Positions 15,168-18,338 of a DNA stretch of 64,000 nucleotides are shown here, one piece after another. The notes under the pieces were generated by a model. The model ran no database searches, was not told the origin of the DNA, and saw only the letters and a list, made by a program, of their open reading frames with translations. The DNA is from a virus. Lineage: Duplodnaviria; Caudoviricetes. The DNA is taken from positions 1 to 64,000 of the IMG/VR virus record IMGVR_UViG_2871875081_000002; one strand, 5' to 3'. Within the stretch, counting starts at the first letter, position 1. Every line of letters starts with the position of its first letter. The translations under genes were made by a program, and so were the position numbers.

Positions 15168-15950
15168 ATGAAGGAATTAAGAAAGAAAACATTTAAAAAT
15201 GGTGTCGTGTATTGCCTTCAATTAGAAGATGGCTTTCTAGTTGAAACTACAGACACGTTCTTACCTTATTACACCAAAGATGCAATAGGCAGACATCAAA
15301 ACAAGCTTGATAACAATGAGCTTGGCGACCGTACAGAACGTTGGATGATTGGAGTATCTACAATGAGTGGGTGTCCAGTAAGATGCAAATTTTGCGCTAC
15401 AGGCAACATGAAACGTTATCGCAATCTTACGGCAGAAGAAATTGTAGAGCAGGTTGAATTTGCCATCAATAAGGCAGGTGCTGACCCAAGCAAAGCAAAA
15501 GAGTTTAAAGTTAACTATACTCGTATGGGCGAGCCATTTCTTAATATTGATGCAGTCAAAGAGGCTATTCGTATTATTACGGAGAAATATCCTAATACTC
15601 ATCATTATGTATCAACGATTGGTATTAAGGGTAGTGATTTCTCTTTCATTAATGGAAATATCACATTGCAGATTAGTTTGCATTCATTTGATGATGACAA
15701 GCGAAATTGGTTGATTCCTTATAAGAACAAAATGACAATTAAGGAGTTGGGACAGATTCGCACAGAAAGCAATCTGAAGACTACAATCAATCTTACACTT
15801 GTTGACACTTCTGATTTTGATGCAGAAAAGCTGAAAAAATGGTTTGATAAGGAGCATTTCTTCGTGAAGTTGTCTCCTATTAATGTGAATAACATATCAG
15901 AGAAAAATCACCTCGGCAATGGTGTTGTAGAAGGAATTAATTTAGTATGA
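15168..15950 (+). CDS. RlmN/Cfr-like radical-SAM enzyme lacking the C-terminal catalytic segment
   Basis: VSTMSGCPVRCKFCATG…RNLTAEEIVEQV…TRMGEP…STIG…LQISLHS…KLSPIN track RlmN motifs; ORF ends before any CGQL motif. Confidence 0.88.
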   Translation: MKELRKKTFKNGVVYCLQLEDGFLVETTDTFLPYYTKDAIGRHQNKLDNNELGDRTERWMIGVSTMSGCPVRCKFCATGNMKRYRNLTAEEIVEQVEFAINKAGADPSKAKEFKVNYTRMGEPFLNIDAVKEAIRIITEKYPNTHHYVSTIGIKGSDFSFINGNITLQISLHSFDDDKRNWLIPYKNKMTIKELGQIRTESNLKTTINLTLVDTSDFDAEKLKKWFDKEHFFVKLSPINVNNISEKNHLGNGVVEGINLV

Positions 15951-16714
15951 AAAAGGGTATTTTCAGATATAGAATTATCACAAATCTGAATTGCAACATG
16001 AACGAAAGTACAGGAGTAAACGGAAATTGTTACTTCTGCTACCAAAAGTTTAAGTCACCATTGCGACTGGATTGTGATAAGATGGAGGAAACTTTGAAGA
16101 AGGTTGGTGTTCTGAAAAGAGCAACTATCATGGGAGGCGAAAGCTTGCTCAATCCAGATTTGGTAAAGATTGTAAAGATAGTCAGCAACTATACGTCAGA
16201 TGGTATTTGTCTTGTTACAAATGGAATACTGCTTAATGAGGACATCATCGTAGCATTGAAAGATGCTGGATTAACTGAGGTTGCTATCAGTGTGTCTTCT
16301 ATCGAGCAGTACGAAAGACGTAGAGACATGGCACTTCAGTGTAAAGAGATTATTCCAAACACAAGAATAAACATTCCTAAGTGTAAGGAAAGCTTGAATC
16401 CACAATTGTTGGAAACAATACTGGAAGATGGCTTCTATAGCATTGTTTGTGAAGATTTACAGGCTAGATATGGTGAGATAAGACTCCCAAAAGGTTCTGT
16501 AAAGGTTGGCGATGACGGGTATGGATTTTACGATTACAAGTGGAATGGTCATACATTTGGAGTATTTGGCAATTATGGGAAGTACAACCGAAGTGATATT
16601 ATCGTAACTCCTCTTGGAAATTTCTGCGATTGGGAAAAGTACTGCAAGGCCGTTAAGAACAATGAACTTGTAAGAAGAAACAATCATATTGATGATGACA
16701 AAATTGTGCATTGA
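15947..16714 (+). CDS. Radical-SAM enzyme with atypical CX11CX2C cluster motif
   Basis: CNMNESTGVNGNCYFC, GGE, VTNG, AISV core motifs. Confidence 0.82.
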   Translation: MKKGIFRYRIITNLNCNMNESTGVNGNCYFCYQKFKSPLRLDCDKMEETLKKVGVLKRATIMGGESLLNPDLVKIVKIVSNYTSDGICLVTNGILLNEDIIVALKDAGLTEVAISVSSIEQYERRRDMALQCKEIIPNTRINIPKCKESLNPQLLETILEDGFYSIVCEDLQARYGEIRLPKGSVKVGDDGYGFYDYKWNGHTFGVFGNYGKYNRSDIIVTPLGNFCDWEKYCKAVKNNELVRRNNHIDDDKIVH

Positions 16715-17135
16715 TTTCGGAAGTGGCTATAATCCAAAAACTGGATATAAAACTTGCGATGTAACAACCCTTCCACAATTGGACTTCCAGTATGATGGAA
16801 AAGATGAGATTGTCGGACTAAGAGAAAAATCAGTAGATGTATTCTATCTAAGAAACGTTGTTCATCATATCCCAGACTTACAGAGAACCTTCACAACCTT
16901 GAAGAAGTATCTGAAGGTAGGTGGAAAGCTGGTTATCATTGACTGCAATTAAGGTCATTACAAGACAAATGTATTTCTTGACAATTTGTGGTATAGATTT
17001 GTTGGCAACAACCACGAAATCTTTATCAGTAAACAGTATAGAGATTACATCAATGTTTTGATCAAGTTAGGCTTTAAGCAATTATATTATAAATCATTTA
17101 AAGAAAAGGAGATTACTAAGTATGAATGCAATTAA
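16689..17135 (+). pseudogene. Class I SAM-dependent methyltransferase interrupted by an in-frame TAA (16950-16952)
   Basis: IDFGSG motif I, RNVVHHIPD…LKVGGKLVIID; the frame stays open for 60 more codons to TAA at 17135. Confidence 0.75.
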
Positions 17136-17241
17136 GAATCAATTGGAAAAGATGGGTTACGATTATGCAGTAGCAATCGCAACAAAGGCTGAAATTGAGA
17201 ATGGAGCTGCTTGTGGTCAGCTCGCTATTATTTGTGAGTAA
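17122..17241 (+). CDS. 39-aa peptide matching the RlmN C-terminal catalytic-Cys segment (…GAACGQL…)
   Basis: MNAIKNQLEKMGYDYAVAIATKAEIENGAACGQLAIICE, translated by hand; absent from the ORF track. Confidence 0.8.
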   Translation: MNAIKNQLEKMGYDYAVAIATKAEIENGAACGQLAIICE

Positions 17242-17291
17242 GTAATTAATCACCCTCTCCTGTAAAAGGGAGAGGGTAAAAAGAAAAGAAT

Positions 17292-18338
17292 ATGAGATTA
17301 AGTGAATATAAAGCAGGTACTATCTTAGTTGCTAGTGATGGTAAAGTGTTTATCCATGATGGCTTTGTTAACGCTGATGGATATGGTGTGATAATTGGTG
17401 AGGATTCTGATGGAATGATTCAGAAATCCAATGGTATTGGCAATTGGATGAAGTGTCACATTAAAGGTGTTGCGACAAAAGAACAGATTCGTGGGTTCTT
17501 TGCCAAGGTTCGTAAAACACAGAAAATTATCAATTACTAAGGAGGGTAAAAAAAGAAGAGAATATGGATTTAGTAATTACAATATTAGGTTGGATTGCAT
17601 TAGGTGTTATATCTGCTTATCTGTTAGCAATAATAGGTAAAATAATCTTTGATGCTGCAACCGCTGATTATAAGTTATACAAGCATGTAAGATTGTGTCG
17701 CAAGAGATTGCTAAGAAAGCGATATGAAGATTATGCTTGGCTATTACTCCAGTTAGAGAAAGATACGGAAATTTTCAATCTTACTCATAATACAAGAGAT
17801 TGGACTTTTGAAGATTGGAGTGAATTTTATCTTAAAAAAGCAAAGGAGGATAAGCAATGAGTAAAGAAAAAGCTAAAGAATACATTAATAATTCCATTGA
17901 GATTTTGAACTCTATGAATTGGCTTATAAATACTCAGAGAACTGAAGCTATAATGTATTTAGATAAAGCACTTAAAGAGTTGGAGGATAGAATATGATAA
18001 GAGAAGAAGTAGAAAGGAATATAGAAAAATGGCGAGAAATCTCCAGACCTTTTATAGATAAAATGGTCAAATTAAATGTAAGACGCGATGAGTTACTTCG
18101 AGAAATGAAACAACTTCAAGAAGACTGTATTAAAGCCTTGTCTGTTAAAATCGGAGATAAAATTATGGATGAAGATGGGCGTGTGGGTTGGCTTTCCAAA
18201 ATAGTTCCTTATCGTTCACCATCGGAAAGGTTTATGGGGTCAACATTACAATTGACTCTCTTCTTCCATATGGAGAAAAAAGATGGTACTCGTGACACTC
18301 ATGAGGTTTATGTTCATGGTCTCCCAATCAAACTATAA
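17292..18338 (+). CDS. Small hypothetical accessory genes (17292-17540, 17564-17860 membrane, 17994-18338)
   Basis: + strand ORFs with A-rich leaders. Confidence 0.55.

Follow-up and report, generated by a model that had tools for sequence, protein, structure and literature searches.

Analysis of a 64,000-nucleotide stretch of a viral genome (Duplodnaviria; Caudoviricetes; IMG/VR record IMGVR_UViG_2871875081_000002, positions 1 to 64,000; hereafter the window) indicated that two of its open reading frames (ORFs), named A and P, very likely encode the two pieces of a class-A-type (RlmN/Cfr-like) radical S-adenosylmethionine (SAM) enzyme, in which P, a peptide of 39 amino acids, would deliver the cysteine-bearing loop in trans. 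The phage is crAss-like, and its nearest named relative is Kehishuvirus 'tikkala' (Steigviridae, host Bacteroides cellulosilyticus). Two further frames of the same locus are named B, for a second radical SAM protein, and C, for a small methyltransferase, and D denotes a third radical SAM type that is found in relatives. RlmN and Cfr, the standard examples of class A radical SAM methylases, methylate adenosine at C2 or C8 in rRNA or tRNA, and each of them requires two cysteines located in a single polypeptide.

Core protein A and the detached tail peptide P

A matched the RlmN model TIGR00048 with an E value of 9e-23, only between model positions 102 and 287 of 355, and also matched the RlmN structure 6fz6 (E 6e-15) and PF04055 (E 2e-11). 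In a profile comparison by hhalign, A aligned with columns 76–296 of an RlmN-like alignment (E 3e-43). The cluster cysteines of A are C69, C73 and C76, which are invariant in alignment A2, and the sequence ends about 20 residues past the KLSPIN motif, without the Cys-bearing tail. The N-terminal helical HhH2-like RNA-binding domain of RlmN is missing as well, just 56 residues preceding the core, and A-type proteins have a conserved insert of about 22 residues (LPYYTKDAIGRKQN...) before the cluster motif. When clustered at 90% identity, 2221 clusters matched A at E <= 1e-5. The one PHROG match of A was phrog_24834, whose function is unknown, and none of A, B, C and P fell in a named NCBIfam or PHROG function. 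One A homologue of 601 amino acids (P0124, 60% identical) had an insert of about 340 residues within the CxxxCxxC motif (CPVRCAF / C LLPE ... VLVHN / CATAKLG), whose intein-like ends and LAGLIDADG-like middle make it resemble an intein placed within the loop of the radical SAM cluster motif.

Comparison of P with the same RlmN-like alignment identified this peptide as the detached counterpart of the RlmN/Cfr C-terminal tail that bears the methyl-carrier Cys. The C-terminus of P reads ENGAACGQLAIICE, and its profile aligned by hhalign with columns 311–344 (E 8.5e-6), spanning the helix, the strand and the AACGQL loop, with Cys31 of P corresponding to Cys355 of E. coli RlmN; the methyl-carrier Cys of Cfr is Cys338. 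This alignment bears out the suggestion made in a preliminary description of the window that the P frame is the missing RlmN tail. Together, A and P span the whole RlmN catalytic domain, and the break between them sits in a loop. In a distant phage family (loci L104–L127, 25–28% identity) the tail is still fused and ends in ...GYDVLVFIASKEEDESRITCGNAILS, to which P aligns in tblastn; as in a split gene, A and P are colinear with different parts of a single ORF, as seen from the two column ranges of the RlmN-like alignment given above, and they are co-inherited.

P is conserved throughout apart from its last 3–8 residues, with 16 invariant positions (alignment A1). Between diverged P genes, 68–95% of the synonymous sites differed versus 8–30% of the non-synonymous sites, and omega, the ratio of non-synonymous to synonymous substitution rates (dN/dS), was 0.05–0.07 where computable, the synonymous sites being saturated. 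Such purifying selection indicates that P is a translated gene. P belonged to no Pfam, NCBIfam or PHROG family, and HMMER searches of PDB sequences with the P sequence or the P profile gave no match, the peptide being too short for the HMMER filters.

Natural fusions joined P to A and to other proteins of these loci. P0127 (315 amino acids, 49% identical to A) has a P homologue fused at its N-terminus, and cluster P0331 is built likewise. An AlphaFold2 model of P0127 had a predicted local distance difference test score (pLDDT) of 89 and a predicted template modelling score of 0.89, and the top 11 Foldseek matches of this model were all RlmN or Cfr, with PDB 5hr6 and 5hr7 among the matches. The P part of the model contained a confident helix at residues 2–10 and a strand at residues 14–18 that was assigned to a sheet by DSSP; because a sheet assignment needs a partner strand and all other strands are located in the A part, the P strand is predicted to pair with the A part. 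Confidence was low only near the Cys loop, which is a mobile element in RlmN too (PMC9692996).

A profile search detected 69 clusters of longer proteins containing P, including 17 C-P fusions, one P-C fusion and three fusions with D, and in the remaining clusters P was joined to unrelated neighbour ORFs, including those for GIY-YIG and HNH endonucleases. An endonuclease ORF of one of these two types was located just upstream of P in P0329, P0338 and P0341. Locus L128 contains A, B and a fused C-P in the gene order of the window, and locus L129 contains A, a Cys-tailed protein of 101 amino acids and a D-P fusion. By these sequences, P is a module that has moved between positions and remains associated with A, C and D.

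D, which has weak YydG/HxsC/MoaA-like matches, lies between A and P in some relatives, together with a partner of its own, at L079 (4783–5133 and 5134–6000), L080 (4883–6100) and L129 (4674–5993). In these three loci the partner has 101–116 amino acids and a Gly/Ser/Pro-rich C-terminus that ends in a CG...C motif, and D with its own Cys-tailed partner would be a second enzyme-plus-Cys-peptide pair. In L129, an RtcB RNA ligase was called as two adjacent pieces of 185 and 276 amino acids (6470–8049), 0.5 kb downstream of D-P.

Conservation and age of the split

The arrangement of A and P was surveyed in 80 IMG/VR loci with A at 68–100% identity and in the 'tikkala' locus, giving 81 close loci. 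The layout of the window, A-B-C-P, was found in 46 of these, and 28 had A and P without B and C, with a spacer of 17–59 nucleotides that occurred in all three frames, or of 1.4 kb in L080. A single locus had the order A-P-B-C, the contig ended before P in another, and deletions had removed P plus the end of A or part of B in the other five. All 75 close loci having an intact A and enough contig contained P. In a second subfamily (about 35–47% identity to A; other environments, including a Vibrio-prophage-like contig), P was found in 12 of 12 loci, either directly downstream of A, 0.2–0.9 kb downstream, or 1 kb upstream. Counted over both subfamilies, all 87 informative loci have A together with P, at identities as low as about 35%.

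The same split is present in the isolated phage 'tikkala', in which an A homologue of 262 amino acids is followed, after 2 nucleotides and in another frame, by a P homologue of 43 amino acids annotated as a coding sequence (WEU69813.1), with no B or C. Among longer homologues of A, none had the tail at its C-terminus, the extra length being N-terminal; the contigs of P0133 and P0155 were short, and neighbouring genes could not be read there. The split is ancient and is not a recent disruption or an assembly error. A programmed frameshift or readthrough joining A to P was ruled out by the spacers in three frames, by the location of P kilobases away from or upstream of A, and by the stop codons present.

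The natural two-chain arrangement proposed in the preliminary description, as an enzyme of two chains or an enzyme plus peptide co-substrate, is in agreement with these results, P being conserved, under purifying selection and mobile relative to A, with no C-terminal fusion in the A clade. The possibility raised there that close homologues are single full-length ORFs was not borne out by close or by distant members of the A clade, nor was the possibility that the peptide is not conserved. As for the conservation of the split and of the partner genes, about which it had also asked, the split is kept to the distance given above, and B and C recur in relatives and are missing from the 28 close loci with A and P only.

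In the deletion variants L039, L062, L073 and L076 the end of A was cut off, and in L006 the break was located within B. In all five, P, and B and C where present, were lost, and the remaining sequence was joined to genes that lie up to 2.7 kb downstream in the window.

Partner genes B and C and the layout of the locus

B matched PF04055 with an E value of 3e-13, and a protein atlas look-up returned 'radical SAM protein' clusters only. Its cluster motif is Cx11CxxC and that of other family members is Cx3CxxC or Cx5CxxC (alignment A7), the long spacer of B being, by this comparison, a lineage-specific loop insertion; the family also has an extra invariant cysteine, Cys168, in the motif VCEDL (alignment A7). 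The best Foldseek matches of an AlphaFold2 model of B (pLDDT 88.9) were MoaA (2fb2, E 7e-9, template modelling (TM) score 0.65) and viperin (5vsl, TM score 0.62). The substrates of MoaA and viperin are nucleoside triphosphates, and the modelled MoaA/viperin-like fold of B may be a weak hint of a nucleotide substrate.

C, a small class I SAM methyltransferase, matched PF08241 with an E value of 2.5e-7, and an intact C relative in L002 matched phrog_5399, 'SAM-dependent methyltransferase' (E 4e-27). The C region of the window is colinear with intact methyltransferases of 147 amino acids in L002, L005, L047, L070, L074 and L079, and is split by an in-frame TAA at 16950–16952 into ORFs 16689–16952 and 16986–17135. 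Over 42 related loci this codon was AAA in 24, CAA in 16 and AAG in one, and TAA in the window only, which points to a strain-specific nonsense mutation or a sequencing error. Stop-codon reassignment was ruled out, TAA being a single-genome variant of a codon that is CAA, AAA or AAG in relatives. C is probably inactivated in this genome by the TAA codon.

B and C always co-occur, and they were present in 7 of 17 divergent loci and in both subfamilies, in the orders A-B-C-P, A-P-B-C (L079, L091 and L096) and P-B-A-C (L097). This recurrence in different orders and in both subfamilies indicates that A, B, C and P are an old functional set, and the lack of B and C in 28 of the 81 close loci marks A and P as its conserved core. 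The four-component modification system of the preliminary description is therefore supported in part: the linkage of B and C to A and P stood, given their recurrence in distant lineages and the C-P fusions, but A and P alone are the core, and with C broken in the window, at most three of the components are intact there.

Coordinates of the features of the A–P locus in the window
Feature	Position	Strand	Evidence
A: RlmN/Cfr-like radical SAM core, 260 amino acids	15168..15950	+	TIGR00048, PDB 6fz6, hhalign, alignment A2
B: second radical SAM protein, 255 amino acids	15947..16714	+	PF04055, alignment A7, AlphaFold2 model, Foldseek
C, 5' part: small class I SAM methyltransferase, DFGSG motif I, ended by in-frame TAA	16692..16952	+	PF08241
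C, 3' part: same frame as 5' part, runs to normal stop, overlaps start of P	16953..17135	+	colinear with intact relatives
P: 39-amino-acid peptide, helix + beta-strand + AACGQL loop	17122..17241	+	hhalign, alignment A1, dN/dS, relatives
Hairpin: 10 bp, GC-rich, 11 nucleotides after P stop	17252..17277	+	free energy -19 kcal/mol, z = -4.6 versus shuffles

A and B overlap by ATGA at 15947–15950, B and C overlap at 16689–16714, and C and P overlap at 17122–17135, the candidate starts of C being 16689 (TTG) and 16692 (ATG). The 1.17-kb B-C block between A and P is flanked by an 8-nucleotide repeat, AGTATGAA, at 15944–15951 and again at 17119–17126. The ORFs given in the preliminary description, the motifs CPVRCKFC (CxxxCxxC) and KLSPIN in A, the overlaps and the repeat were all located where it had placed them. 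Its statement that all four ORFs overlap their neighbours is correct for A/B, B/C and C/P, but C consists of two ORFs, of which only the second meets P. Likewise, the repeat at which it had imagined an excision of B and C is present, but such an excision fails to give the A-P loci, whose spacers are of the lengths noted above.

The hairpin downstream of P may mark the end of an A-B-C-P transcription unit; it has no T-tract behind it and was not listed in the consensus terminator scan, and consensus promoter and terminator scans gave background levels. About 50 nucleotides around the hairpin (about 17241–17294) match two unannotated gut phage records (MT835597 and MT835610) with 88–94% identity. 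The neighbours of A, B and C encode small unknown proteins, a GNAT and a YopX, with no protease or exporter among them.

Proposed mechanism, alternatives and significance

Similarities to RlmN and Cfr (TIGR00048, TIGR04432; PDB 3RFA, 5HR7, 6FZ6, 9P0P), which were also the best sequence and fold matches, include the radical SAM barrel, the CxxxCxxC motif, a (G/R)MGEP motif and a beta-extension before the cluster, as well as the elements of the tail, namely a helix, a strand and an AACGQL loop that bears the methyl-carrier Cys. In contrast to RlmN and Cfr, the tail is a separate gene product, the N-terminal HhH2-type domain is lacking, the insert of about 22 residues is present, scores are far under the family cut-offs, the genes are carried by phages, and an invariant Gly (Gly62 of A) takes the place of RlmN Cys118 (Cys105 in Cfr), seven residues ahead of the first cluster Cys. 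A lacks four features that define RlmN and Cfr, namely a score above the cut-off, a methyl-carrier Cys within its own chain, a second catalytic Cys, and the N-terminal helical domain.

In a tree of 69 core sequences, all Cys118-less families were placed in one clade with a support of 99 in the Shimodaira-Hasegawa-like approximate likelihood ratio test (SH-aLRT). This clade is composed of the split family, three fused-tail families and one tail-less family, and the RlmN-like and GGGCGQ-tail sequences located outside it have kept Cys118. In a Cys118-less sister family of 260–280 amino acids (P0178, P0201, P0206, P0207, P0210 and related sequences), the tail helix and a GFxYAxR strand are kept, and the protein ends before the Cys loop.

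In the proposed mechanism, A would supply the [4Fe-4S]/SAM barrel, and P would dock by adding its helix and beta-strand at the site of the RlmN C-terminal tail, with Cys31 set on a flexible loop above the SAM site. By analogy with RlmN, Cys31 would receive a methyl group on its sulfur, from SAM in A or, in loci that have it, through methyltransferase C. The 5'-deoxyadenosyl radical would abstract a hydrogen, and the thiomethylene radical would then attack an sp2 carbon of the substrate. B and C may be an optional add-on module that acts on the same substrate or on P.

Since A has no Cys118 equivalent and no RNA-binding N-terminal domain, both the last step and the substrate would be expected to differ from those of RlmN. 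By analogy, an adenine-type base, carried by a nucleic acid or by a nucleotide, is the most likely substrate, the candidates being phage DNA, host or phage RNA, and a nucleotide. RlmN also methylates A37 of tRNA, which makes phage tRNAs possible substrates; in the window, ARAGORN identified a cluster of five tRNA genes at 1626–2846, Arg-CCT, Ser-ACT (90 nucleotides, odd), Met-CAT, Pro-AGG and Thr-GGT. In four environmental loci (L087, L090, L091 and L094), A and P, with or without B and C, are located between genes for a NadR-like nicotinamide-nucleotide adenylyltransferase and NAMPT, which are genes of nicotinamide adenine dinucleotide (NAD) salvage; the window holds neither gene. This NAD-salvage neighbourhood in some phages and the MoaA/viperin-like fold of B keep a nucleotide among the possible targets.

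Several observations weigh against A and P as an RlmN-like enzyme in two pieces. A scores below the curated family cut-offs, with 80.7 bits versus 290 for TIGR00048 and 53–56 bits versus 530–550 for the Cfr models. The wider split family has Gly or Ala in place of Cys118, no conserved Cys other than the three cluster ligands was found in A (alignment A2), and the only conserved Cys of P is Cys31, the second one, C38, being variable. With neither Cys118 nor another conserved Cys in A or P, the known RlmN chemistry cannot be completed, suggesting that the reaction may differ. We infer the docking of P on A from one modelled natural fusion, P0127, and from homology; its fusion to C and to D is as compatible with P being a carrier or substrate peptide as with P being a structural subunit; and the five natural deletion variants indicate that the A/P module is dispensable.

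RlmN needs Cys118 to resolve the Cys355-CH2-adenine intermediate, and when this residue is mutated the enzyme is trapped in a covalent adduct with the RNA (PMC9692996). The absence of Cys118 from the whole clade therefore implies either that another base or thiol resolves the adduct or that the adduct stays. If it stays, P would be the suicide co-substrate of a peptide ligase, in which the Cys31-CH2-substrate thioether is never cleaved and each turnover leaves the 39-amino-acid peptide on an adenine of host or phage RNA, of DNA or of a nucleotide. We regard this as unlikely, even with Gly or Ala at the Cys118 position in all members, a Cys118-less group that forms the single clade described above, and the accumulation of just such a covalent adduct by the C118A variant of RlmN (PMC9692996); moreover, a Cys on a diffusible peptide would leave A untrapped and free to turn over, and the chemistry would thus be catalytic for A. 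However, the Cys118-less relatives with fused tails (the families with ITCGN, GSNCGQ and AACGQA tails) would each be spent after a single turnover, which argues for resolution of the adduct by a different base or thiol in this clade, and there is a single P gene, which shows no mark of the high expression that a stoichiometric reagent needs. Also improbable is a formulation in which P is a consumable or swinging-arm 'methylene-carrier peptide' that would be S-methylated by A or by the methyltransferase to which P is often fused and then grafted by A, which has no resolving residue, via a Cys-S-CH2 bridge, onto adenine in host RNA, phage DNA or an adenine nucleotide.

Alternatively, P could be a carrier, or a substrate resembling ribosomally synthesized and post-translationally modified peptides (RiPPs), on whose Cys a group is built or modified by A, B and C (and by D elsewhere), the product being a modified peptide or a released small molecule. 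The fusion of P to three enzymes (C, D and A) in either orientation, as in a swinging-arm carrier or a fused precursor, is consistent with this, as are the weak matches of D to the peptide-modifying radical SAM families YydG and HxsC and the small Cys-tailed partner that D has in L079, L080 and L129. It is nevertheless quite doubtful, given that P is conserved over its whole length and homologous to a structural element of RlmN, with no leader-plus-variable-core layout; that no SPASM domain or RiPP recognition element was found in A, B or C, and no protease or exporter among the neighbours; that matches to peptide maturases span the generic radical SAM core only; and that A and P alone are the commonest minimal set. 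A decaying or mis-assembled RlmN gene, with a recent insertion of B and C and with P as a non-functional remnant, would account for the B-C block and its flanking repeat, the nonsense codon in C and the deletions in five related genomes, but has next to no credibility. In 28 loci and an isolated phage the split is present with B and C lacking, homologues only about 35% identical still have it, P is under strong purifying selection, and no C-terminally fused form was found in the clade; decay and mis-assembly are refuted by the conservation of the split and the selection on P.

Among known systems, a two-piece enzyme of A and P would resemble phage genes-in-pieces, such as the topoisomerase genes 39 and 60 of T4 and the nrdA gene of Aeromonas phage Aeh1, which is reportedly split by the mobE homing endonuclease gene. 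In these, too, one enzyme is made of two assembling polypeptides, and foreign genes may sit at the junction; in contrast to them, the small piece here is about 40 amino acids long, contains a catalytic residue and has changed its place within the locus, and the split is old and common to a whole family instead of a single phage. A second comparison is GrcA/YfiD, the free-standing glycyl-radical 'spare part' of pyruvate formate-lyase, which rescues the full-length enzyme after damage. Like GrcA/YfiD, P is small, shares homology with the C-terminal catalytic part of a radical enzyme and would act in trans with a large body, whereas the A body never has a tail of its own, which makes P obligatory, and the radical would be a thiomethylene rather than a glycyl radical.

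No account of an RlmN-like enzyme that is split or encoded by a phage was found in a literature search. In a phage clade of thousands of sequences, one of the RlmN/Cfr cysteines has been moved to a 40-residue peptide and the other dropped, which implies an undescribed way to finish, or deliberately not to finish, methylene transfer, and a new substrate. The system, a natural one, allows the methyl-carrier element to be added, labelled or mutated independently of the enzyme, and the minimal A and P pair in the isolated phage 'tikkala' makes the question directly testable. If P is a methylene-carrier peptide, the pair would be the first natural radical SAM peptide-to-nucleobase ligase, for phage takeover or counter-defence. 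Should the reaction yield a modified nucleic acid or nucleotide, these very abundant viruses of the human gut could possess a new chemistry for modification or for counter-defence.

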